A DNA stretch of 64,000 nt from Nitrosopumilus sp. (GCA_965203315.1 OZ241857.1:1376001-1440000); one strand, 5' to 3'. Shown: positions 2,829 through 53,987, counted from the first letter of the stretch. Numbers and translations are program-made. Notes: generated by a model from the letters alone, not told the origin.

Positions 2829-4957
2829 TCTTTGTTTACCTCATAGATGAATACTCCCAACTTTGGACCAACACTTGGATCATGATAACTATTTGATGCA
2901 TATACTAGTCGTAGTGGACCATCTCCATCTGCAGGATATTTGATATCTCTCTGATATACTCCAAGATATCCGTCGATATACCTAGCTGACTGTTGTTGCA
3001 AGTTTTCTTGATTTATGTATCCGAGTAGCGAGTATGGAAACATCTGTCCTAGAATAGTATCATTCCAGAAACGTTCTGTCCCACTGTTAAAGTCGTTGTG
3101 AAGAAACTCTGATACTTCAAATCCACCTATTCTTGTAAACCAGATCCGTTTGGCCTCATCTCCGCCTCCATTTAGAACATAGAGCTCTTCATTTTCACTA
3201 CCGCCTATCTTGTTTGCAGCTACAAATATCAGTACATAATCAGCTTGAGTCTCGATTATACTTTGATACGCATCATCGGGCGGACTCATAAATATGCGTG
3301 CAACATTCTGAATCTTGATAGTACTAGATGTCCAATTGTCTAACAGTGTCGCACGTTCGCCCATAGTTTGAATCCAATATCCATAGTCCCACCATGACAT
3401 AAAGACTGCATCTTTTGGAGTATTGTTCTTGATCCATTCGAATGTATCGAGCCAGTCATGTGAGATGATTCCGGCACTTGCACCTCCGTTTAGAATGGAT
3501 GGTGGTGTTCTGCCCACATCGGCTGCAGTGAATCCTGTAGGATATACGAGTGGAATCATCAAGAGAAAGATCAAGACTCCGCTAAAGACAATCTTTGTAC
3601 GATTATCTATCCTAGATCGTCTATCTGGAGCCTTTTTGAAGAAGTGATGGATCAAGATAGCTATTCCTAACGACGATAACATGATTATTGTAATTGACGC
3701 AAACAACTCTAGACGGATAAACGCCGAGCTGACATGTGCTCCAACTATACCAAAGATCAGCATAAAGATCAACATGTCGTCACGAATAAACTTGTCTCTA
3801 CTCTTGATTATTATCCATATGCCGATTCCTCCAAATATCAATAGTACAGAATTGAATATGTAAGACTGTTCTAGAGTCTTTGAGGTATGTTCAGATACAG
3901 AATCTGATAACGGATCAATGTTTACTAGGAATGGATTCAATGCATGCATATATCTATAGTTGGGTGTTGGGAACAAATCCGTCTCGATTCCAACTGCAAG
4001 AGCAGATGAACCGACAATGACAAACGCTGCTAGAAAGATTAGACCATTTCGACGCTTATTTGTACTAGTCTTACTTTGTACAAATATACACGATATTAGA
4101 AATATAGTAGTCGCAATCAAGACCAAGACCGCGGTAGGAGTGGTAAATATTCCCCTCTCGAATACAAATGATGTGATCAGAGCTGAAACAGTATAAACTG
4201 GAACGGCCCATAACAAAAATCGATGATCAGTTCTCACAAATGGTAACGCAATAAAGAAGAGACTAGTTGGAAGTATAAAGAATATACTGCCACCCCAAGC
4301 CGATATCGCAAATGCAGTAAAGACTCCTCCTGCAGCCAATTTTGCAAATGCAACCCTTCTGTTTGATGAGGTAATTCCACTCAACAGTAGATACGTACAC
4401 AATAGACCAAAGAATAGCCCCATCGGCTCAGATTTGTACCAACCTAACGAACTTCGAACTAGAACTGGTATGGACACTGCAAATAGCATCGATGCTATCA
4501 GACCAGCTGTCGTCCCACCTATCACTCGTACTAGAGCAAAGACCACTATGCTACTTAGTGAGATAAATACTACTGGAAAGAATACGATAAACTCGTATAG
4601 AGACGAACCGCCTCCAAATATAGAATACGTTAACGCAGCAGTAATGTGGGTTATGATCTGAGATGTTGCAGAGATGTTACGCCCATCAGGATACCAACTT
4701 AGTTCGTCATGCCATGTATAGTATGCATCGAGTCCGTTATTCACTAGATACTCGGTTGCTCGAAAGTTAAAGAAGGGGTCAAACTCGTTTAGATGCAGTC
4801 CAAACTGTTCTGCATACTGTACGGGCTGTACACGTATGAGAAATGCCATAGAGAATGACAGTGCCAATACGCCTATAATCAATAGGTGATGTAGTTTAAA
4901 CTCAAAGTTGCCAACGGTTACGAGTTTAGTGTTTGATAACATTTGATCTCTCATCAA
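2810..4957 (-). CDS. aglB: oligosaccharyltransferase AglB (STT3)
   Basis: EFDPFFNFR, SVSEH and WWDYG motifs; many TM segments. Confidence 0.93.
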   Translation of the reverse strand: MMRDQMLSNTKLVTVGNFEFKLHHLLIIGVLALSFSMAFLIRVQPVQYAEQFGLHLNEFDPFFNFRATEYLVNNGLDAYYTWHDELSWYPDGRNISATSQIITHITAALTYSIFGGGSSLYEFIVFFPVVFISLSSIVVFALVRVIGGTTAGLIASMLFAVSIPVLVRSSLGWYKSEPMGLFFGLLCTYLLLSGITSSNRRVAFAKLAAGGVFTAFAISAWGGSIFFILPTSLFFIALPFVRTDHRFLLWAVPVYTVSALITSFVFERGIFTTPTAVLVLIATTIFLISCIFVQSKTSTNKRRNGLIFLAAFVIVGSSALAVGIETDLFPTPNYRYMHALNPFLVNIDPLSDSVSEHTSKTLEQSYIFNSVLLIFGGIGIWIIIKSRDKFIRDDMLIFMLIFGIVGAHVSSAFIRLELFASITIIMLSSLGIAILIHHFFKKAPDRRSRIDNRTKIVFSGVLIFLLMIPLVYPTGFTAADVGRTPPSILNGGASAGIISHDWLDTFEWIKNNTPKDAVFMSWWDYGYWIQTMGERATLLDNWTSSTIKIQNVARIFMSPPDDAYQSIIETQADYVLIFVAANKIGGSENEELYVLNGGGDEAKRIWFTRIGGFEVSEFLHNDFNSGTERFWNDTILGQMFPYSLLGYINQENLQQQSARYIDGYLGVYQRDIKYPADGDGPLRLVYASNSYHDPSVGPKLGVFIYEVNKDYTPLS

Positions 4958-28118: not shown

Positions 28119-30029
28119 CTATGCATGTGCATCACCATGCATTAGATTATTCACTTTACTCTTACCTGCAGGCATCACTCGTATGATATCATCTAATGGA
28201 ATACTCTTTGCAACTGTTTCATCTTTTTCTAAAAGTTCAAGTCTAATCTTCTTTGCAGCGTCTACTAGATCTAAACCTTGCGGTTCGATAATACTATAGT
28301 ATATAGATCGTTGCTTGATGGGTTCAACAGGACCACACGTTACTACATACGAGTCATCACTATCCATGATACCTACTGCCAACTTTAAGCTAGTTGATTT
28401 GATAAAGTTACGTTGACCTTCTATAGTAAATGATCCCTTTGGTAGAAACTCGCCTGACGGTGCTGACTTTTTTACCTGATCAGGATACACCCAATAGGCA
28501 CGTACACCATACAATCCTTCACGCCATGCACGACTAAAGCAGACGGTAGCTATTGCCATCTGACTCATGGTGTCATCTGATGGCGTATCAGCATCTTTGA
28601 GTATGAAGAACGGTGATCCAAAGATATCTGCGTGAAATACTTTGTCTCTGTTGGTTAGTTGTTTGCGAATTACAGCCGAGTTGGATGCAGCATCACGTCC
28701 ACCAACTGCAAGTAGTCCATCTGTTGTGTAAAACCATCTATATCTCTCATACCAACTCTTCTTTCGTATATTTGACACAGTGATATCAGGTACATTTTGT
28801 TCTTTTGTTAATAGATGTTCTAATTTTGTTTTAGTCTTATTCATCGCAGCTTGAATGGTATTGGTTGCAGCTGCTTGATGTTTAGCCTCATCAAATAATG
28901 TAGATGCAATAGAATGTAGTGACGACTCGATGTTGATTCTAATCTTTGTTGTGTCGACTAGAAGAAACTTGATGCCCTTCTCTGTAATAACTCTAGCATT
29001 GTGAGTTTTTAGTATATCTATCGATCTAGGGTCTTGGATACTTTGTATACCTTGGGAGATCATATCAAAGAATGACTTGGCCACAACTGTTATTGCAGCT
29101 GATCTCTCTTGAACCGTCTGAATAGCTTTTGATTGTTCATCTAGCCTCGTCTGTAGTTCTGTTATTGCGCGGTTTGATGTAGAAGACTGTATCGAGTTTG
29201 CTTGAGCAACCAACGACTCTGTAAATACTGTATCTAGTCCTTGAATAAAACTGTCTACAGGTACTCCTTGATCACTTTTGAGCTGCACGGGATATACTTC
29301 AGGTCTGTCGCCTGTAATGATAACCGGTTTGTGATTGCCGTGTGTAATGTCGTGTACAAGTTTTTTTATTGTATTGTATAAATGCGTGATCTGTTGTTTG
29401 GTGAGTTGATCAGATGGTATCTGTGAATCTATACCGGCCAATGTAAATACTCCTTCAGCATATTTTTTTGGAAGTCCCAATGTTCTCCCAACCCATCTCG
29501 CTGCAACCATGTCTGACTTGTACATATCTGTAAAGTTATCCTCAGTTATGTCTAGAATATCTATCTCGGTTTGGAGTGGCGGTGTGTACTGTAAACCAAC
29601 TGATAGCTTTCTGTGCCGTACGTCTATAGAGTGTTGTAGTGCTAGAATCTTCCCCGTCTCATCATACAGTATGATGTTCCCGTCGCCAAAAAACTCTACA
29701 ACTAGAACAAACTCCCTTTCAAATCCCTCAAACACTAGATATGCGATTCGTTCTGAGCCGATCTGTCGAATCTCCTTTAAACGCAGTCGTACAATATCAC
29801 TACGCAGTCGTTTCTGTAATCGATTTGGTTCTATCTGTTCTATCTTTACTGACGTGATCCAGATGCCCATAGTTGAGACCATCAAAAAGAGATCGGGTTT
29901 GTCGGTATGATGTAGTTTGAAGAGTAAACTAGATTTGTTTATTCCATAGATGTTACTGACATAGTATCCTTTGGCCTGCTCTGATATGGTATCTACAAGA
30001 TATCGCAGCTCAATTCCCGCAAGCGTCAT
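28119..30029 (-). CDS. rqcH: NFACT/RqcH ribosome rescue protein
   Basis: QIGSERI, EFFGDGNIIL, WYERYRWF, GGRDA..N, FHADIFGSP, KSAPSGEFLPKGSF. Confidence 0.9.
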   Translation of the reverse strand: MTLAGIELRYLVDTISEQAKGYYVSNIYGINKSSLLFKLHHTDKPDLFLMVSTMGIWITSVKIEQIEPNRLQKRLRSDIVRLRLKEIRQIGSERIAYLVFEGFEREFVLVVEFFGDGNIILYDETGKILALQHSIDVRHRKLSVGLQYTPPLQTEIDILDITEDNFTDMYKSDMVAARWVGRTLGLPKKYAEGVFTLAGIDSQIPSDQLTKQQITHLYNTIKKLVHDITHGNHKPVIITGDRPEVYPVQLKSDQGVPVDSFIQGLDTVFTESLVAQANSIQSSTSNRAITELQTRLDEQSKAIQTVQERSAAITVVAKSFFDMISQGIQSIQDPRSIDILKTHNARVITEKGIKFLLVDTTKIRINIESSLHSIASTLFDEAKHQAAATNTIQAAMNKTKTKLEHLLTKEQNVPDITVSNIRKKSWYERYRWFYTTDGLLAVGGRDAASNSAVIRKQLTNRDKVFHADIFGSPFFILKDADTPSDDTMSQMAIATVCFSRAWREGLYGVRAYWVYPDQVKKSAPSGEFLPKGSFTIEGQRNFIKSTSLKLAVGIMDSDDSYVVTCGPVEPIKQRSIYYSIIEPQGLDLVDAAKKIRLELLEKDETVAKSIPLDDIIRVMPAGKSKVNNLMHGDAHA

Positions 30030-30349: not shown

Positions 30350-30421
30350 TGGACTGGGTGGGATTCGAACCCAACACTCTTTGTTGACAGTAAAGTGCTC
30401 TTCCTTTAGATCTACCAACCC
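30350..30421 (-). tRNA. atypical or degenerate tRNA-like gene, GTC (Asp) anticodon
   Basis: GGGTTGG/CCAGTCC acceptor, loop CTGTCAA, GGTTCGAATCC; one mismatch in each of the D, anticodon and T stems; A73. Confidence 0.6.
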
Positions 30422-44127: not shown

Positions 44128-45362
44128 CAGTTAACGCAAATGTGCCTCTTCCTCGAGGTGAATGTTTGGTGGTGGCCACATTTCCATAAATTTATTTACA
44201 AATTGTTCAAGTTTCTTTTTAAATCCGTACTGCGAAATTTGTCTGCCATTCACATAAAACATATCATTCTTTTTTCGTGGATTGCGTGCGATTATCCACC
44301 CATTATAAATCGCCGAACTTAGTATATACATGAGTTTTCTCACTCTGTGATCCCTACTTGATGTTTTTAGTTTGAATCTATCAACACTGCGATATCCTGT
44401 TTCGATAATCCATCTCTTTTTGTACTTGTCAATGTTAATTCGTGCATTGTTTGTCGCAAATGCAATATATCCAGACTCGGTTCTAGTACTCTCTTCAATG
44501 ATCATCGAATACTCTGCAGCGAGACCTTTCTTTCGGTTTTTCATCGTGCGTTTTGATACTCGTTTATATTTTCCTTTACCGAATTCTCGAATACATTTTT
44601 TGACTGGAATACTTTCTTTGCAAGGCATGAGATAAGTCAAATGTCTTCTGTTAAACAGATCAATCACTTCTGTTATGCAGAACTCTTTATCTAGTGTGAA
44701 TGTGCCTGGATTTATCCCAAATTTCTTGGCTTTTCCGAGGATTTTACGTATACAATCAACGTTTGTGTCTTCGTCTGACATGCTAAATATTGCAAACACT
44801 ATTGATGACCCGTTGATGGTGATTTGAGCTGTGATGTGTTTTTGATACTGGCATGTCTTCTTGTCAATCTTACCATGATGCAGATAATCACTTTCTGTTT
44901 TATCGAACCTCAGATCCTTGTGTATATCTATTGCAATGTCTTGAACACTAGGCCAACGCCCCTTGCGTTTTAATATTCTAATTTGTTCCTTAACTACCCT
45001 ATCAAACATTGCTGCTGGATCACATTCATTTACCATTTTTATGAATAATGTTCTAACCCATTCACCAGTAGGCATACCATTGTCTTTATTATTATTTGCA
45101 ACATCTGCAATATTTGCTTTTGACATTATCGACTTAAACAAGAGAGAAAAAACTGTAGAAGTACCATACATGGCATTGTAATTTTGTGATATTGGAAAAG
45201 ATATTTCGGTTAACCATTTTGTAATTTTATTATCTTCAATGTATTTTGCAAACTTTCGTTCATATTTTTCAATTTGATTTTGCAATGGTTATTGATTTTT
45301 AATACCCTTTATAGATCTTTCTATTTTTGTTTATAGGTTTAAGATCACATTTGCGTTAACTG
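44128..45362 (-). mobile_element. ISH3-family insertion sequence
   Basis: 17-bp TIR CAGTTAACGCAAATGTG; 5-bp target duplication AATAG (44123-27 / 45363-67). Confidence 0.9.
44131..45285 (-). CDS. ISH3-family DDE transposase
   Basis: IAIDIH, LDKEF, YKKRWIIETGYR. Confidence 0.85.
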   Translation of the reverse strand: MQNQIEKYERKFAKYIEDNKITKWLTEISFPISQNYNAMYGTSTVFSLLFKSIMSKANIADVANNNKDNGMPTGEWVRTLFIKMVNECDPAAMFDRVVKEQIRILKRKGRWPSVQDIAIDIHKDLRFDKTESDYLHHGKIDKKTCQYQKHITAQITINGSSIVFAIFSMSDEDTNVDCIRKILGKAKKFGINPGTFTLDKEFCITEVIDLFNRRHLTYLMPCKESIPVKKCIREFGKGKYKRVSKRTMKNRKKGLAAEYSMIIEESTRTESGYIAFATNNARINIDKYKKRWIIETGYRSVDRFKLKTSSRDHRVRKLMYILSSAIYNGWIIARNPRKKNDMFYVNGRQISQYGFKKKLEQFVNKFMEMWPPPNIHLEEEAHLR

Positions 45363-46956: not shown

Positions 46957-47871
46957 ATGAAAGAGGTAGGCAAGATATGGATGAATGGCAAACTAGTTCC
47001 ATTCAAGTCTGCCAAGGTTCATGTACTTACACATGGTTTGCATTATGCAACTGCAATATTTGAGGGCATTAGATGTTACAACACTTTGAAAGGATCTGCA
47101 ATATTCCGACTAGAAGAACATGTAGATCGACTCTTTACATCTGCAAAGTTGTACTCTATGAAGATGCAGTTCTCTAAAAGACAGATCATGGATGGTGTAA
47201 TTAATACTGTAAAGGCGAGCGGTCACAAAGAATGTTACATCCGACCTCTTGCATACTATGGATATGGTACCATGGGACTGACTCCAACACAAAACAAGGT
47301 CGACTTGTCGATATCGTGTTGGGAGTGGAAGATGGGCGAATCAAAAGCAGGCAAGTTTACTGGTGCAAAATGTGAGATATCTAGCTGGATCAAGATCGAT
47401 TCTAGATCACAACCGATGCAAGCAAAGGCAGCATCAAACTATGCAAATGCAGCACTTGCGCGCGTAGAGGCTCTAAACAACGGCTATGATGAAGCTATAA
47501 TGTTAAACTTGCATGGCAAGGTCGTAGAGGGTAGTGCTGAGAATATCTTTATCGTAAAAGATGATCTAGTATATACTCCACCACTATCCTCGGGTTGTCT
47601 TGCAGGAATAACAAGAGACAGCATAATTCAGATAATCGAAGCAAATGGTGGTGGTGTCATCGAGAAAGACTTGGAGCGTGACGATCTGTACATTGCTGAT
47701 GAGATATTCATGACAGGAACTGCAGCGGAAGTAAAGTCTGTCACGCAGATAGATAACGTCAAGATTGGAGATGGCAAGATGGGCAAGAACACAAAGATGC
47801 TACAAAAACTATTCTCAGATGCAGTGATGGGTAGAGACGAGCGATTTCTATCATGGCTAACTTACATTTAA
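46957..47871 (+). CDS. ilvE: branched-chain amino acid aminotransferase
   Basis: LHYATAIFEGIR, YIRP, AKAASNY, EGSAENIF, LAGITR, GTAAEV. Confidence 0.95.
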   Translation: MKEVGKIWMNGKLVPFKSAKVHVLTHGLHYATAIFEGIRCYNTLKGSAIFRLEEHVDRLFTSAKLYSMKMQFSKRQIMDGVINTVKASGHKECYIRPLAYYGYGTMGLTPTQNKVDLSISCWEWKMGESKAGKFTGAKCEISSWIKIDSRSQPMQAKAASNYANAALARVEALNNGYDEAIMLNLHGKVVEGSAENIFIVKDDLVYTPPLSSGCLAGITRDSIIQIIEANGGGVIEKDLERDDLYIADEIFMTGTAAEVKSVTQIDNVKIGDGKMGKNTKMLQKLFSDAVMGRDERFLSWLTYI

Positions 47872-47890
47872 TACTCTAGTTCTCGGTAAG

Positions 47891-48007
47891 GGATCTTTTC
47901 GGTTTATGTGAGATGAATGGTTACAGAAAAAGCGCTACAAGATTCTATAAAGGAAAATTATCGAAAAAGCCTTGTGAAAAGATATCCAATGTAAATCGAA
48001 GAGATCC
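47891..48007. mobile_element. MITE (family M1)
   Basis: Imperfect TIR GGATCTTTTCGGTTTATG / TGTAAATCGAAGAGATCC. Confidence 0.65.
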
Positions 48008-48014
48008 TGCGAGA

Positions 48015-48226
48015 GGTTCTGTTCAATTGACTGGGGCTCTACACTTTACAATTGTGAAATTTGGAATGAAAACATCCTGATTTGTCTCCAATTTTTCTAA
48101 ATTTAGCAAAATAACGAACATTTTTTGCAATCTGTATCAACAACACAAAAATCTAGGATCAATCGGTTATTAGGTAAAACGTCTAAATTCATGAAAACTG
48201 ATAACTCGTGACAATTGAACAGAACT
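48015..48226. mobile_element. MITE with IS6-like ends (M2 termini, different interior)
   Basis: GGTTCTGTTCAATTG...CAATTGAACAGAACT. Confidence 0.75.
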
Positions 48227-48342
48227 CAATAAAACACATCTATAAAAAAGATGGTTACTGCTGTGCTGCAGACTATACCCATTTGTTTGTTTTATTGGGA
48301 GTAACCAATCTATATAGCATACTACTTAATTTAACTATTACT

Positions 48343-48428
48343 GACAGTGTAGTTTAGATCGGTTAGAACGCCCAACTGAAGATTGGGAGCTGTGCTGCAG
48401 CACGAGGGTTCAAATCCCTCCACTGTCG
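48343..48428 (+). tRNA. class II (long variable arm) tRNA with GAA anticodon: Ser-type body, Phe anticodon
   Basis: GACAGTG/CACTGTC, G73, CCCAA-CTGAAGA-TTGGG, variable arm A-GCTG-TGCTG-CAGC-AC, GAGGG-TTCAAAT-CCCTC. Confidence 0.85.
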
Positions 48429-48708
48429 TATATGTCTGGATCCAATAACGTTCAACATTCTATTCGACACTATAAGCCAATCATCAAAAGTGAACATATC
48501 TGTTAACACAAATGTGTGTTTCTTGACAAGTATTCTGACCGTATTTGATATATAGGATCTCTTCGATTTATGCGAAATGGAATTTTGACATAAAAAGTAA
48601 TACACTACTTTGACATGTCAAATGATTAGGCGAACTATTCTTCATATACCGCAGTAGCAGAATAACTCTTACATAATCACTTGATTCATAAATACATGTT
48701 TTGGATAT

Positions 48709-48900
48709 TTGTTGTTGAGTCTCACACCATCTAAATTGAGAGAACCTAGATGCTCTACAAGTACCGCAGACATATGCTGGTTTTGTCACAAAGGTCGTCA
48801 TGATGACTGTATGTTAGAGATCCCTACATATGCAGAGACCGATGGACCACATGACTGTACATTTGACACAAAGATGATTCCATGCAAGTGTCAACACTAG
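48709..48900 (+). CDS. small Cys/His-rich protein
   Basis: CWFCHKGRHDDC...HDC...CKCQH; abuts the next gene. Confidence 0.7.
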   Translation: MLLSLTPSKLREPRCSTSTADICWFCHKGRHDDCMLEIPTYAETDGPHDCTFDTKMIPCKCQH

Positions 48901-49461
48901 GTGTTTTGTATCATGGATGATACATTTTGGGATAGATATGCTCAAGAGAATGAGTCTAGATACAATGTAGAGTTTGCCAAGTTTACAAGAGATCTCGCAG
49001 TATCGCTACACTGTTCTAGCGTACTTGAAATAGGATGTGGCACCGGAATCGATCTACGACTATTTCCAGATACGTTTGAGATGTATGGTCTAGATCCCAA
49101 CCATACGGCGTTATCTATAGCTCGAGAAAAACTACCAAAGGTACGTTTTGAGATAGGTACGATCACAGATCTACCGTTTGACGAATCACAGATCGACTTT
49201 GTCTTTACACATCAGCTACTAAACTATCTAGATGATCATACGCTAGAGTCTGGTATGTCAGAGATGTACCGCGTCGCAGGGCGGTACATAATGAACTGTG
49301 AAAAATTTTCCGAGTCAGAGACACCCATAGATGAACACCACAAGTATCGAGACATGAGAACTAGATGGTCCAACTATAACGTAAAGATCATAAGTAATGT
49401 AAACATGCATAAAGAGATCGAACCTGATGAGGCGAGATTTACGTTAGTCAAAAAATTATGA
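48901..49461 (+). CDS. class I SAM-dependent methyltransferase
   Basis: VLEIGCGTG, DLPF...IDFVFT, EMYRV. Confidence 0.88.
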   Translation: MFCIMDDTFWDRYAQENESRYNVEFAKFTRDLAVSLHCSSVLEIGCGTGIDLRLFPDTFEMYGLDPNHTALSIAREKLPKVRFEIGTITDLPFDESQIDFVFTHQLLNYLDDHTLESGMSEMYRVAGRYIMNCEKFSESETPIDEHHKYRDMRTRWSNYNVKIISNVNMHKEIEPDEARFTLVKKL

Positions 49462-49541: not shown

Positions 49542-52500
49542 GTGAGTGATCAAGAGACCAATCAAAAAAAGTTAACCAAAAACTACAAACACTATCAAGA
49601 CAAACTCTTACAAGTCACAAAGCGAAATCGTTCTGTCCTTCTCAAAAGAATTTACACCAAACATAACTTTGATCTAAAACAATTGGATGATCTAAAAGAT
49701 GGCACCGTAAATAAAATACTCTTAAAGGCAATTAAAAATATCAGCGCGTCTATCGATGATAAAATAGACGAAGGCAAGTTACAGAATATTCTCTCGGACT
49801 CGATCGAAGCCGAGTCTGCTGATTCGATGCGATCTAAATTAAACTCTCTAAAGAGAAATCTTGTATTAATTGAAGAAGAGACTGGACAGCAGACCGGTTA
49901 TCTAGGATTTCCGTTTCTCGAAGGTCATATAGATCCAGACTTTTATGTTAGAGGACCAATCGTCTTGTTTCCAATATCGATAGAGTATATCAGACGATCA
50001 AGAAATAGCGGTTGGTTCTTGCGTCTTGAGGATAGACGACCGATACTAAACGGTGCATTGATTGTAGCACTCAAGAAGAGAGGAGGATACACACTACCAG
50101 AAGACTATGAAGAGACGTTTGATGAGATGATCGAGAGTATCCCCAAATCTACAGATCAAAGTACATTCTTTGATATGATAAACGAGTGGGTCAAGACATT
50201 GATCCCTATACAAGACACACTAAATGTACCCGAGAGTGTAAAGCTTGACACATTAAGTAAAGAGAGACTATCGACTCTAGATACACAAAAGTATCATCTG
50301 GTCAACTATACAATAATAGGAAACTTTCCACAAGCAGATAATCAGATATACAAAGACTATAACAAATTGATCGAAGATGCTAATCCAGGCCAAGTAGTAT
50401 CAAATCTATTAGATATTGTAGACGATATCACACATACAGATGAGATCGATGATCCATATACAGACGAGTATGATCCTGATACAAAAATAAACGGCAACGA
50501 TATGCTCCTAAACCTAGCACTCCCAAGTGACTCTAGTCAAGATCAGGTAATTCTAGAATCAAAGAGTTCAGATCTAGTAGTTGTGCGAGGACCGCCAGGC
50601 ACAGGCAAGTCTCAAGTTATAGTAAATCTCGTAACAGATGCATTATGCAACAATAGACGAGTTGCAGTGATATGTCAGAAACGTGCTGCACTCCAAGTCG
50701 TTAAACAGAGATTGGGAAAGATCGGATTAGATCAGTACGTGGTATTTTTAGGAAAAGAGTCAGATGATAGAAGAAAGATGTATCAACAGTTACATGATAT
50801 TATCATGAGAGATCCAGAACCGATATCTAGTTCTGAGAAGACGATTCAAGATATCTCAAATGATATAGACAATTGCATAAAGTACCTAGTAGATATCGGA
50901 ACTGCACTAGTACGAGAGTACGATGGCGCAACTGCACACAAGATATACTCTAAAGCAGATGGCAAGTACAAACGTGTACTAGATATCTCTGATCTCAATC
51001 TAGAGTGGAAAAGGTTGGACAGATACATACAAGATATCGCAGATGTTGAGGATCAGTTTAAAAGATTTGAAGACCAATCTCACCCGTGGTTTGGTAGAAT
51101 AAACTTTACAGATATTGGTATATTGGAGAGAGACGAGATGATAAGAGATCTAGAGTATCTCCTAGAGATCACTCCCAAGTGTATACTTGTACAAGATCAA
51201 AAACTTCAGATACGTTTAGAGTCACTCTTTGACACATATCTCAATGATCCTGGCTTTTTAAAGTTCAGACGGCGAGGAGCAAAAAAGGAGATCAAGAGTA
51301 TAATGTCTCGTGATATTACAGATCAGTTTGTAGCAGAGTCGTTTGACAAGATCAAGAGTGGTATAAAATTTTGGAGGCGATTTGAGAGACTATTAGGGAG
51401 GTTTGGTGATGATAGAGCAGATGTGTTACGATCTCATATAGGTACAGATACTCTGACATCTAGACTTACAAAGATGAGAGAGACACTTGATCAGTTTGAT
51501 GCCATGCAAGAGTTTGATAAAAAAAAGTTGGAATACGACAAATCGATATTTGCACTGTTATCTCAAGCAAAGACTCGTATGAGTATGGACTCTAGCTGGG
51601 CTCCAAATATCAGACAAGAGATATACATACATTGGCTCGCACATATCGAACGAGAGAATCCAATTCTAAAAGGTGAACCTAAAGCCAACTATGAATCACA
51701 TAGAATGAGACTTGCAGAACTGATGGACGAGAAACAAAAGATAGTCATAAAGACCATAACACGAAACATAGTAGGAAGAATAAGACAGAATGATATCTAT
51801 GGACGAAAGACTAGAGCCAATCAAAAGTTAAAAGACTTTGTAACAGAGTTGAAGCGCAAACGCAAAGTGAAACCTGTTAGAAGATTGTTTGAAGAGTACT
51901 CTAAACAGATGTTTCAAATTGCACCCTGCTGGCTGTTGTCACCAGAGATGGTCTCCAAGGTATTTCCATTAGAGAGAGATCTATTTGATCTCGTAATAGT
52001 AGACGAAGCTAGTCAGCTTGCAGTAGAGAGATCCATACCGTTTATTCATAGAGCGAAACATGTGGTTATTGCTGGAGATGAGAAACAACTCTCTCCATTT
52101 GATCTCTTTCAGATCAGTGAAGACGAAGATGAAGACGACGAGATAGTGATAGAAAAGAGTCTGCTAGAACTTGCTAGAACTAGATACAAGACCACCAATC
52201 TCAGTTGGCATTATCGATCCAGGTATCAAGAGTTGATAGACTTTTCAAATCATGCCTTTTACAATGGACTGCTAAACGTTGCACCAAATGTGATGATATC
52301 TCCCCCACGCCCTCCAATTCGATTCATAAAATGTAATGGAGTGTGGGAGAATCGCAGTAATATTGTTGAAGCAGAACGAATAGTAGACGAGATAAAGAGT
52401 ATCTTGAGGAACAGCAGAGATCTGGGAGAGGAGTATCCATCGATCGGCGTTATAACCTTTGGTGATGAACAACGTGATATAATAGACGATAACATCAACA

Positions 52501-53249
52501 AGATGCAGTATAACGATCCAGAGTTTGCAGAGATGTACAATACTGCATATGCCAATGCAGATAAAGACGACAGACTCTTTGTAAGAAATATCGAGAACGT
52601 TCAAGGTGACGAACGTGACGTAATAATCTTCTCGATCGGATACGCGAGAGATCATGATGGAAACTTTGCAAACAGATTTGGAACCCTTAGTGTAAAGGGA
52701 GGAGAGAATAGACTAAACGTAGCAATAACTAGGGCAAGACGTTCCATGATTGTGGTATCTTCCATCGAGCCTCAAGAGATCAAAGAGACATCAAAGAACG
52801 ATGGACCTAGACTGTTACGTAAATTTTTAGAGTATGCAAAGATGGTCGATAGCCTCGATACAAAGGGCAAGGAGAGGATTCTCGGTGAGATCATACCAGA
52901 CATGCCGAGAAGACAAGAGGAGACGATCTTTGACTCAGAGTTTGAGAAAGAGGTCTGTCAGCGTTTGAGAGAGAATGGCTATGAAGTGGATACACAGATT
53001 GGGTCTTCTGGTTATAGAATAGATCTCTGCATAGTACACCCCAACGATCCCAAACGTTATGTCCTCGGTGTAGAGTGTGATGGTGCAACGTTTCATTCTG
53101 CAAAGAGCGTAAAAGAGAGAGATGTGATGCGACAGAGATTTCTAGAAGACAAGGGTTGGCATATTGAGAGGATTTGGAGTAGCAACTGGTGGAGAGATCC
53201 GGAACGAGAGATATCTAGGATCAAGACTGTTATTGATGGTCTTTTATGA
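49542..53249 (+). CDS. DUF4011 - SF1 (Upf1-like) helicase - Vsr-like endonuclease (Hhe-type defence protein)
   Basis: KLLQVTKRN, EETG..T.YLGFPF, GPPGTGKSQ, VDEASQ, GDEKQL, HYRS, ENVQGDERD, RLNVAITRAR, DSEFE...GYRID...ECDG..FH...RD..RQ. Confidence 0.88.
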   Translation: MSDQETNQKKLTKNYKHYQDKLLQVTKRNRSVLLKRIYTKHNFDLKQLDDLKDGTVNKILLKAIKNISASIDDKIDEGKLQNILSDSIEAESADSMRSKLNSLKRNLVLIEEETGQQTGYLGFPFLEGHIDPDFYVRGPIVLFPISIEYIRRSRNSGWFLRLEDRRPILNGALIVALKKRGGYTLPEDYEETFDEMIESIPKSTDQSTFFDMINEWVKTLIPIQDTLNVPESVKLDTLSKERLSTLDTQKYHLVNYTIIGNFPQADNQIYKDYNKLIEDANPGQVVSNLLDIVDDITHTDEIDDPYTDEYDPDTKINGNDMLLNLALPSDSSQDQVILESKSSDLVVVRGPPGTGKSQVIVNLVTDALCNNRRVAVICQKRAALQVVKQRLGKIGLDQYVVFLGKESDDRRKMYQQLHDIIMRDPEPISSSEKTIQDISNDIDNCIKYLVDIGTALVREYDGATAHKIYSKADGKYKRVLDISDLNLEWKRLDRYIQDIADVEDQFKRFEDQSHPWFGRINFTDIGILERDEMIRDLEYLLEITPKCILVQDQKLQIRLESLFDTYLNDPGFLKFRRRGAKKEIKSIMSRDITDQFVAESFDKIKSGIKFWRRFERLLGRFGDDRADVLRSHIGTDTLTSRLTKMRETLDQFDAMQEFDKKKLEYDKSIFALLSQAKTRMSMDSSWAPNIRQEIYIHWLAHIERENPILKGEPKANYESHRMRLAELMDEKQKIVIKTITRNIVGRIRQNDIYGRKTRANQKLKDFVTELKRKRKVKPVRRLFEEYSKQMFQIAPCWLLSPEMVSKVFPLERDLFDLVIVDEASQLAVERSIPFIHRAKHVVIAGDEKQLSPFDLFQISEDEDEDDEIVIEKSLLELARTRYKTTNLSWHYRSRYQELIDFSNHAFYNGLLNVAPNVMISPPRPPIRFIKCNGVWENRSNIVEAERIVDEIKSILRNSRDLGEEYPSIGVITFGDEQRDIIDDNINKMQYNDPEFAEMYNTAYANADKDDRLFVRNIENVQGDERDVIIFSIGYARDHDGNFANRFGTLSVKGGENRLNVAITRARRSMIVVSSIEPQEIKETSKNDGPRLLRKFLEYAKMVDSLDTKGKERILGEIIPDMPRRQEETIFDSEFEKEVCQRLRENGYEVDTQIGSSGYRIDLCIVHPNDPKRYVLGVECDGATFHSAKSVKERDVMRQRFLEDKGWHIERIWSSNWWRDPEREISRIKTVIDGLL

Positions 53250-53387: not shown

Positions 53388-53987
53388 CTATTGAACTTTT
53401 GCTTCGATCTCGTTGTATCTTTCGAGGATTGCAGTGAGAACAGTTGATACTGGAACATCATTCATCTTCTTCTTCTCTGTTAGCAGTTTCTGGTATGCAT
53501 CAAGCGTAATGTATACGGGGATGGAACCATTTCCTTCTAACAGACCACGAACGTTATACAGAGCAGTCTCCATACCGCGCTCGGCAGATTTTGCAAACTT
53601 GGCCTTGTCTAGTATGTTGCCCAGAGGACCAAAAGGCATCTCGTAATCAACCGACATCGTAACTCGTGTCAGATTGTTGGCAAGTGCTTGAAACTCGTTT
53701 GTGATATGCCATCGCTTGAATGGTCCATCGATCTGTTTTGCAGATATTCTCTCATTTCGTACAAACTCTGTCGTCTCACAGTCCCACTCTAGACGCTTAC
53801 CACCAAAGTCACCAATCACTCTAAATGTAGTACCTACACCCATCCCCTCCTTGATATCCATGGGAATGACGGTCATGCCTACCGCATCAGACTTTAACTG
53901 ATCAGATACATGCTCGGGTCTTGCAAAGTATGTAAAGACATTCTCTACAGGCGTCTTTATGTCAATAGACTTTGTAACTAAAGTCAA
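53388..53987 (-). CDS. SRPBCC (polyketide cyclase-like) protein
   Basis: SIDIKTPVENVF, GPFKRW, VDYEMPFGPLG. Confidence 0.82.
   Translation of the reverse strand: MTLVTKSIDIKTPVENVFTYFARPEHVSDQLKSDAVGMTVIPMDIKEGMGVGTTFRVIGDFGGKRLEWDCETTEFVRNERISAKQIDGPFKRWHITNEFQALANNLTRVTMSVDYEMPFGPLGNILDKAKFAKSAERGMETALYNVRGLLEGNGSIPVYITLDAYQKLLTEKKKMNDVPVSTVLTAILERYNEIEAKVQ

Follow-up and report, generated by a model that had tools for sequence, protein, structure and literature searches.

Which amino acid, if any, is delivered by a tRNA whose body belongs to one family and whose anticodon belongs to another? This question is raised by a gene at positions 48343-48428 of a 64,000-nt stretch of DNA from Nitrosopumilus sp. 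(GCA_965203315.1 OZ241857.1:1376001-1440000; hereafter the window, with coordinates counted from its first letter), which combines the phenylalanine anticodon GAA with the long extra arm and the discriminator base G73 of a serine tRNA. A preliminary description of the window had pointed to this mismatch and proposed either a missense-suppressor tRNA inserting serine at UUC/UUU codons or a tRNA repurposed for a non-ribosomal role. We confirm that the locus carries an intact serine-type tRNA gene with a GAA anticodon, and we are highly confident that it is a real accessory gene and one member of a family of such tRNAs.

ARAGORN calls a tRNA-Phe(gaa) at 48342-48429, and the Rfam model RF00005 matches 48343-48428 over the full model length with 60.7 bits (threshold 29; E 1.1e-10), the 13 extra nucleotides appearing in the alignment as an insertion in the variable region. 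All pairs of the acceptor, D, anticodon and T stems are standard, with zero mismatches, and the acceptor and T stems follow the 7/5 geometry (7-bp acceptor stem, 5-bp T stem). The universal tertiary positions U8, A14, G18 G19, U33, the T-loop UUC and A58 are all present. Folded alone, the sequence adopts as its minimum-free-energy structure a cloverleaf with an extra arm (z = -2.97; 1 of 200 shuffles folded equally well). The full stem pairing, the loop C-U-GAA-G-A and G73 (window position 48428) of the preliminary description are thus borne out by ARAGORN, Rfam and the fold, and both bases of its G15:C48 pair can be read in the sequence. The variable region does have the 16 nt described, but its stem, given there as 4 bp, extends to 5 bp in the fold, one of them U-G, around a 3-nt loop. 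The anticodon loop CUGAAGA is identical to the loop of the native tRNA-Phe, G37 included; the native tRNA-Ser(GGA) has A37. U8-A9 and the D arm resemble the class I tRNAs of the same genome. Upstream, the AT-rich TATA-like element noticed earlier is indeed in place, and from the listing of tRNA genes we read an AT-rich TATA-like element at similar spacing before many native genes of this genome.

The anticodon itself is also secure. Over 47800-49000, contigs of the sequencing runs X1 and X3 (one study) and X4 (a second study) show 0 other letters and 0 gaps relative to the window. We note that these runs were compared as contigs, at consensus level, and may include the source of the assembly. 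Because the contigs of three runs from two studies agree without difference, GAA is not an assembly slip at the consensus level, and an assembly error at the anticodon is ruled out at contig level: where the preliminary description had advised checking for GGA, all three read GAA.

The gene is accessory, since its genome (G000; 2.47 Mb in 7 contigs, with 48 tRNA genes by ARAGORN and 46 by Rfam) has both of the canonical tRNAs for which it might be mistaken, as the preliminary description had suggested verifying. The canonical tRNA-Phe(GAA) (74 nt; G000:C1:1784347-1784421) has A73, G20 and a 5-nt variable loop, and the tRNA-Ser(GGA) (G000:C1:1755621-1755721) has a 15-nt canonical intron and the loop CUGGAAA. 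The nearest native tRNA to 48343-48428 is tRNA-Ser(UGA), with 58 identities out of 86, and the canonical tRNA-Phe shares 49; with a best native match of just 58/86, an origin by recent duplication of a native tRNA, followed by an anticodon mutation, is ruled out. It had been cautioned that GAA is one substitution away from the serine anticodon GGA. That one-step difference stands, but the caveat is weakened because the gene has G37 and not A37, has no close paralogue, and shares GAA with divergent long-arm G73 tRNAs described below. Of the orthologues expected in relatives, blastn found none, and in 40 same-genus genomes the syntenic site lacks the gene. In fact, blastn of the 86 nt against 24 same-genus genomes and 16 other genomes of the order returned no full-length match, only a 28-nt match to the T arm. 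Patterns built from the anticodon stem and T arm of 48343-48428 gave 0 matches in viral, genome and metagenome collections, and blastn against phage records gave none.

The body of the gene points to serine. According to the part consulted of a review of tRNA identity (PMC9976931), seryl-tRNA synthetase (SerRS) makes no use of the anticodon and recognises the long extra arm and G73; phenylalanine identity depends on G34, A35, A36 and A73, conserved in all systems studied, with G20 as an additional determinant in yeast and in Aeropyrum pernix, the one archaeon studied. Three native serine tRNAs have an extra arm of 5 bp, with 0 unpaired nucleotides before and 1 after it by RNAfold, or, by our own reading, 1 before and 2 after when the closing U-A pair is left open, as in 48343-48428. 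Native leucine tRNAs have a 3-bp arm, 1 and 3 unpaired nucleotides, and A73. The extra-arm geometry and G73 of 48343-48428 fit the native serine tRNAs and not the leucine ones, although C9 and the D stem of the serine tRNAs differ. The native tRNA-Phe shares the whole anticodon loop, but differs in A73 and G20. Of the phenylalanine determinants, G34, A35 and A36 are present, whereas A73 is absent (G73) and G20 is absent (U20). The 16-nt variable region replaces the short 5-nt loop of a phenylalanine tRNA, just as the GAA anticodon departs from the serine anticodons NGA and GCU. G000 has a single standard SerRS gene, which includes the N-terminal arm-binding domain Seryl_tRNA_N. Because SerRS reads the long arm and G73 and ignores the anticodon, it should charge this tRNA with serine, while phenylalanyl-tRNA synthetase (PheRS) should charge it poorly because A73 and G20 are missing. 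By established identity rules, serylation would therefore be the most likely charging of this tRNA.

Could the extra nucleotides instead be a non-canonical intron, cut from the variable loop of an ordinary tRNA-Phe by the splicing endonuclease? The only tRNA-Val(CAC) of G000 (G000:C5:163333-163424; positions 334-425 of the extracted locus L055) is interrupted after position 44 by an intron of 17 nt that forms a perfect bulge-helix-bulge (BHB) motif, two 3-nt bulges around a 4-bp helix; removal of the intron leaves a normal 5-nt variable loop. Variable-loop introns therefore exist in this genome, and the consulted part of the tRNAscan-SE 2.0 paper describes non-canonical introns as common in the phylum. 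The same scan, in our own strict and relaxed versions, found in 48343-48428 no splice-site pair that leaves a 3-6-nt loop with a fully paired central helix; the best pair has 3 of 4 central pairs and no flanking helix. The inability to find a BHB motif that would remove the extra nucleotides, already reported in the preliminary description, is thereby reproduced, and an intron in the extra arm is ruled out by both versions of the scan. Both kinds of gene have additional nucleotides between the anticodon and T stems, but here they lack a BHB motif and form an autonomous hairpin, as does the corresponding region in 18 of 18 related genes, and the discriminator and position 20 differ from tRNA-Phe. 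We consider the intron explanation extremely improbable.

We then asked whether the gene stands alone. We screened 401 genomes of the order, and next 401 of the family, for a GAA loop with G37 separated by a long gap from a T loop; a second pattern had A37 (the tRNA-Ser(GGA) loop with one change). These tallies include genomes flagged as unpublished (G471, G472, G303, G550, G568, G592, G593 and G654), with no named example among them. Many G37-pattern matches were other things, namely intron-bearing tRNA-Arg genes and coding sequence, and the first order-wide matches were set aside as mostly intron-containing tRNA-Arg. The G37 subtype comprises seven long-arm GAA tRNAs verified by ARAGORN, in six genomes of five genera (G132, G198, G555, G580, two genes in G630, and the window gene). 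All seven have G73, although the pattern did not demand it, and five have a clearly serine-like body (C9 and a Ser-like D stem). The A37 pattern has unverified matches in 86 of the 401 family genomes. Among 19 such matches in five genomes, ARAGORN verified 15 as 87-93-nt tRNA(gaa) genes, distributed over G663, which belongs to the window's own genus (4), G540 (5), G580 (3) and G623 (3); the four in G175 were rejected as not full tRNAs.

A genome may contain up to five divergent long-arm GAA copies. Most copies within a genome are about 72-77% alike, and this solely from about 60 nt upstream to 45 nt downstream, although three copies in G663 reach 91-93%. Such divergence indicates paralogues with a conserved promoter region and trailer rather than fresh products of transposition. 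The canonical tRNA-Phe is also kept in 5 of 5 such genomes, at 88-95% identity to that of G000. When 18 members are aligned, G1-C72, U8 and G73 prove invariant (G73 in 18/18), 14 of the 19 predicted pairs show compensatory changes, and every extra region folds as a hairpin of 3-7 bp. The gene at 48343-48428 is the most divergent aligned member, and it has the features that define the family: the 7/5 cloverleaf, a hairpin extra arm, G73, GAA, and a canonical tRNA-Phe alongside. Many of the extra-arm loops of the A37 type (loci L141-L158, from G663, G540, G580 and G623) contain an ACCUC/CCUCC-like motif, which the window gene lacks. Such a motif recalls the anti-Shine-Dalgarno end of 16S rRNA.

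An anticodon-blind search, with a pattern for serine-like bodies in which the anticodon was left free, gave 3-5 matches (canonical Ser and Leu tRNAs) in most genomes; we read the anticodons by eye in the first 150 of 1665 matches and in ten chosen genomes. Among the matches listed, 20 of the 22 surplus serine-like tRNAs have GAA. The two others are a GUC (Asp) gene at G555:C77:7068-7132 and a GAG (Leu) gene at G540:C55:8953-9017. The family also extends to environmental sequence. The G37 pattern matched five contigs in IMG/VR, and one predicted viral contig (L251) has an archaeal-type serine-like tRNA(GAA) with G73 at 4335-4421 (minus strand), about 2.4 kb from a 517-aa open reading frame (ORF) with a weak, sub-threshold terminase match, other ORFs lying between them. 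A37-pattern matches in viral contigs were discarded as mostly ordinary tRNA-Ser(UGA). In metagenome contigs, with at least 120 matching stretches, a tRNA(gaa) was called in 9 of 80 loci; of these, we read three as intron-containing canonical tRNA-Phe and six as long-arm genes, including one identical to the gene of L251. Predicted long-arm G73 GAA tRNAs thus recur across this archaeal family beside the canonical tRNA-Phe.

No protein gene accompanies them consistently: all-against-all BLAST and Pfam searches found no shared partner gene among eight loci. Near the G198 copy lies an ORF that equals the helicase-nuclease of the window (Table 1) in length, at 1235 aa, but is unrelated to it. The G555 copy lies about 3 kb from a homologue of the window gene at 53388-53987, which we treat as a sign of a probable variable hot spot and not of orthology. 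Adjoining that homologue, where the window has tRNA-Lys(CUU), is a 92-nt gene called tRNA-His(atg) by ARAGORN (L136 7380-7471, G555:C133), probably an intron-bearing or aberrant tRNA.

A further property of these genes lies upstream of the promoter. Twelve nucleotides of the window gene's extra arm recur exactly within an upstream hairpin that folds with z = -3.40 on the plus strand and -1.55 on the minus strand (Table 1). This 12-mer has 2 matches in the window, where 0.13 are expected and a count of 2 arose in 1 of 100 shuffles; when the 150 upstream nucleotides were shuffled 500 times, a 12-nt repeat never appeared. The likeness of the second, anticodon-arm-like element to the tRNA is weaker than the 12-mer match. 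An exact upstream repeat of at least 11 nt is found at 3 of the 46 Rfam tRNAs of G000, all of them odd long-arm genes. When 18 long-arm GAA genes were tested, copies of their own segments were found in three, G000 (12 nt), G132 (13) and G555 (13), all at -71 to -83, each matching its own tRNA and each reached by 0 of 500 shuffles. These three genes are all of the G37 subtype and share the same hairpin architecture, in which the extra-arm copy precedes the anticodon-arm copy, i.e., in swapped order. Three of the six metagenomic long-arm genes also have a copy (12, 14 and 32 nt). In about half of the G37-type genes, the window gene among them, the promoter is closely preceded by 12-32 nt that duplicate the gene's own extra arm or anticodon arm; overall, the copies lie 54-83 nt upstream. 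The 32-nt copy takes in all of the anticodon arm and the extra arm, arranged as they are in the tRNA, and its flanks are decayed remains of D-arm-like sequence. By our own reading, the copy or its enclosing hairpin ends a few nucleotides from the TATA-like box at the metagenomic loci, in G132 and in the window.

Rfam at a permissive threshold found no RNA family in the upstream elements of four loci, and by eye we dropped a box C/D or H/ACA reading of the hairpin because the boxes are missing. A divergent antisense transcript from the same TATA-like box is unlikely in its simple form, because its start would fall beyond the best-conserved part of the copy; an antisense promoter may lie nearer the tRNA. 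As to origin, Campbell-type integration and simple tandem duplication were set aside, for they leave an identical arm copy beside decayed flanks unexplained; a partial tandem duplication accounts for the origin of the copy, but not for the arm copy alone staying identical. We hypothesize that the copy may have a regulatory role as RNA or DNA.

The tRNA gene entered G000 within a small (~0.9-kb) repeat-flanked insert. The flanking genes are ~885 bp apart in the window and ~45-75 bp apart in 40 same-genus genomes, which lack the gene. Contig depth is in excess over both repeats of the insert (Table 1), and an IS4-like transposase is located nearby (44131-45285). No integrase adjoins the tRNA gene among the ORFs scanned. 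On the other side, the helicase-nuclease matches the PADLOC models PDC-S37 (E 3.7e-190) and Hhe (E 8.1e-110) and sits between the methyltransferase gene and a tRNA-Lys, where relatives have other DNA; among the matches listed it has no same-genus match at this locus, and partial ones elsewhere in G017 and G014. It belongs to the variable setting and not to the tRNA module. Across G000, the ~117-bp repeat frequently adjoins tRNA genes, and other short dispersed repeats are abundant (22-33 nt, plus a 174-nt element at 96-97% identity).

Table 1. Features of the tRNA locus and its surroundings, in window coordinates.
Feature	Position	Strand	Basis or remark
Insert not found in relatives	47872-48756		class IV aminotransferase gene (46957-47871) on one side, small Cys-rich ORF and methyltransferase on the other
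Dispersed repeat copy of ~117 bp, similar to a miniature inverted-repeat transposable element (MITE-like)	47891-48007		BLAST: well over 100 matches in G000
Upstream hairpin	48253-48306	+	outer stem 48253-48259 with 48300-48306; encloses the copies of tRNA segments; ends 3 nt before the TATA-like element
Exact 12-nt copy of extra arm 48389-48400	48260-48271	+	sequence search
Anticodon-arm-like hairpin	48278-48301	+	CCCA and the 8-mer ATTGGGAG in common with the anticodon arm of the tRNA; U-rich loop; read from sequence
TATA-like element CTATATAG (putative)	48310-48317	+	centre ~28 nt before the tRNA 5' end
Accessory class-II-like tRNA, anticodon GAA, G73	48343-48428	+	ARAGORN, Rfam RF00005, fold, contigs
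Anticodon GAA in loop CUGAAGA (48376-48382), G37 as in tRNA-Phe	48378-48380	+	comparison with native loop
Extra-arm hairpin, 5 bp, 3-nt loop	48389-48401	+	1 unpaired nt before (48388), 2 after (48402-48403); fold
Partial related repeat	48518-48621		on the other side of the tRNA from the 47891-48007 copy
Helicase-nuclease, 1235 aa, candidate anti-virus defence family	49542-53249	+	Pfam DUF4011, AAA_11, AAA_12, MTES_1575

The reading that best fits these observations, and to which we give about an even chance, is that of a serine-type tRNA able to place serine at UUY codons and probably restrained. In this mechanism, the SerRS of G000 would charge the tRNA with serine and, once expressed and accepted by the ribosome, the tRNA would insert serine at UUC/UUU codons. 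More weakly, because Phe-to-Ser decoding is harmful, we suggest that the gene is probably held at a low level or turned on under particular conditions only, a control in which the upstream element with its matching sequence may take part. The steps differ in strength. Serylation of the product in the cell seems somewhat probable, whereas a measurable contribution to Phe-to-Ser decoding is a tentative and rather doubtful proposition. A serine-type tRNA with a phenylalanine anticodon is supported as far as sequence allows, and the interpretation put forward in the preliminary description is partly supported.

Several points weigh against this reading. The pair G30-C40, a weaker serine determinant for archaeal and bacterial-type SerRS in the consulted part of the same review (PMC9976931), is replaced by A30-U40, and the gene has A9, where the other 17 of the 18 aligned members have C9, together with a different D stem. 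Some charging by PheRS may occur, because the anticodon supplies three conserved phenylalanine determinants. Freely expressed, a serine-charged GAA tRNA would do great harm where as many as five gene copies face a single canonical tRNA-Phe, and this toxicity speaks for either restraint or a role outside decoding. In addition, the patterns used to search for the family fixed both loop motif and arm length, which leaves G73, the fold and the anticodon-blind tally as the only unbiased evidence; the tally itself covers about a dozen genomes, selected in part for surplus matches.

A tRNA-shaped RNA working outside decoding would escape the problem of toxicity. It could be a decoy or regulator showing some protein a Phe-type anticodon arm together with a serine-type arm, or else a relic or working part of a mobile-element or attachment-site system; the matched upstream copy would belong to the system either way. 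An insert with repeats on its flanks, close to an IS4-like transposase and a helicase-nuclease of defence type, suits such a role, as do the own-arm copies upstream of 3 of 18 tested and 3 of 6 metagenomic long-arm GAA tRNAs, the member on a predicted viral contig (L251) beside a weak terminase-like ORF, and the other odd tRNA-like genes of G000 with matched upstream copies. In the portion consulted, Mukai et al. 2017 (PMC5389517) likewise suggest that many bacterial allo-tRNAs are unused in translation and tied to toxin-antitoxin genes or transposons. However, invariant G73, U33, a purine at position 37, a standard T loop and perfect, compensated acceptor stems are what a charged decoding tRNA requires, and a decoy has no obvious need for them; nor do the loci have a protein gene in common, and among the ORFs scanned no integrase adjoins the gene. 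We regard this explanation as unlikely. If the gene were instead a second tRNA-Phe with an extra arm, for instance a spare brought in by a mobile element, PheRS would charge it through the anticodon and UUY codons would be decoded correctly. The anticodon loop, identical to that of the native tRNA-Phe including G37, the three conserved determinants G34, A35 and A36 (PMC9976931, part consulted), and the class I-like U8-A9 and D arm all agree with this. Yet A73 and G20 are replaced by G73 and U20, G73 lies outside the search pattern and is found in 18 of 18 family members, and most relatives have plainly serine-like bodies, which makes a second tRNA-Phe distinctly unlikely.

The gene could also be a recently acquired or silenced hitch-hiker on mobile DNA, unexpressed or not yet decayed, and without a role in the host. 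Its absence from the relatives searched, the dispersed repeats on its flanks, and the presence in G000 of other aberrant tRNA-like genes, some of them visibly decaying, would all be expected of such a passenger; a gene with no stem mismatch and a well-placed TATA-like box would not, and in other genomes related genes persist as paralogues that have diverged, with compensatory changes, while conserving their promoter region. We therefore hold this to be very unlikely. A bolder extension of the serine-type reading joins the tRNA and its upstream element into an RNA-level module of poison and restraint, with this family of ammonia-oxidising-type archaea maintaining a dedicated multi-copy set of Phe-to-Ser missense tRNAs, driven by a common promoter, in order to mistranslate under certain conditions. 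The serine-charged tRNA would misread the abundant UUY codons, the arm copy near the TATA-like box would control or mask the tRNA, as RNA (from either strand) or as DNA, and mistranslation would be used, e.g., in virus attack or in conflicts between mobile elements. This is speculative, and we rate it as decidedly improbable.

How does a serine-type tRNA with a phenylalanine anticodon compare with known systems? The Candida tRNA-Ser(CAG) reads the leucine codon CUG as serine and has at position 37 the base typical of the 'wrong' family. That case is a fixed, genome-wide reassignment of a rare codon, whereas here the canonical tRNA-Phe is kept and UUY codons are common. Bacterial allo-tRNAs have serine identity, a long arm and mostly non-serine anticodons; some insert serine in Escherichia coli and others are thought to be unused in translation (Mukai et al. 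2017, Nucleic Acids Res 45:2776, PMC5389517, part consulted). Similar to the present genes, allo-tRNAs are accessory, patchy, and often found near mobile or toxin-antitoxin genes. In contrast, they are bacterial, use an 8/4 or 9/3 geometry, which 48343-48428 does not have, and span ~35 anticodons, whereas 48343-48428 and its relatives are archaeal, 7/5, and almost always GAA. The nematode nev-tRNAs, in the consulted parts of a 2014 review (PMC4033280; original 2012 report PMC3333845), have class II bodies with class I anticodons, leucine identity and low expression, and are charged according to body and not anticodon (PMC4033280). They too form a lineage-restricted, multi-copy family, but are eukaryotic, with leucine identity and anticodons for Gly(CCC) and Ile(UAU). 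The table in the consulted part of that review lists no nev-type tRNAs in Archaea or Bacteria. The upstream copy further distinguishes the present genes from both allo-tRNAs and nev-tRNAs. In the literature searched (mostly non-subscription journals, without supplements), no archaeal serine-type tRNAs with foreign anticodons are described. While serine-type tRNAs with foreign anticodons are already known from bacteria and some yeasts, what is new here is a recurrent, often multi-copy family of long-arm G73 tRNAs with GAA beside a conserved tRNA-Phe.

Other odd tRNA-like genes are found in these genomes. Two 72-nt tRNA-like genes of G000 (window 30350-30421, minus strand; L096 1504-1575, G000:C1:718538-718609) combine an alanine-type acceptor (G3-U70, A73) with a GUC (Asp) anticodon; the canonical tRNA-Asp lies elsewhere, and the two have no match in 120 family genomes. 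Homologous 72-nt alanine-type genes in G287, G067 and G663 have a 9-nt loop containing GAA, preceded by a 13-15-nt upstream copy of their own anticodon arm (with one mismatch in G287). Directly downstream of the alanine-type gene of the window, on the same strand, is a gene for NFACT (28119-30029, minus strand), of the Rqc2/RqcH type of ribosome quality control. NFACT-type proteins recruit tRNA-Ala to tail stalled chains in bacteria and yeast; the adjacency may be due to chance. Two 84-nt long-arm tRNA-like genes (L053 509-592, G000:C5:238808-238891; L054 461-544, minus strand, G000:C1:1671760-1671843) have the anticodons GCC and GUC, respectively, with C33 and a shared conserved trailer, and are preceded by a copy of the extra region and then one of the anticodon arm. 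The copies of the GCC gene are contained in an element of ~110 nt that directly precedes it and is repeated in the genome (7 copies), with a hairpin that is conserved; another copy of this element is found ~200 nt upstream of the GUC gene. Where the element precedes tRNA-like sequence, its copy region varies together with that sequence. Lastly, an arginine-like tRNA (G000:C1:170835-170909, minus strand; Rfam 33 bits) combines an anticodon loop of 8 nt (ARAGORN 'tcgt') with a single mismatch in the acceptor and with G73, and its upstream hairpin is made of copies of its own T-stem and acceptor strands.

In sum, the mismatch between body and anticodon at 48343-48428 is not that of a lone mutant but of a member of a family, almost always with GAA, in an abundant archaeal group. 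Should such tRNAs be charged with serine and take part in translation, a frequent codon would be read ambiguously on purpose, which would bear on how much mistranslation is tolerated and on its use as a weapon or in response to stress. Should they be unused in decoding, they would represent a new class of tRNA-shaped RNAs whose anticodon is conserved. The matching copy upstream poses a further puzzle, one of regulation, that is testable. Either way, these archaea may misread or otherwise exploit the genetic code in a way that has so far gone undescribed.

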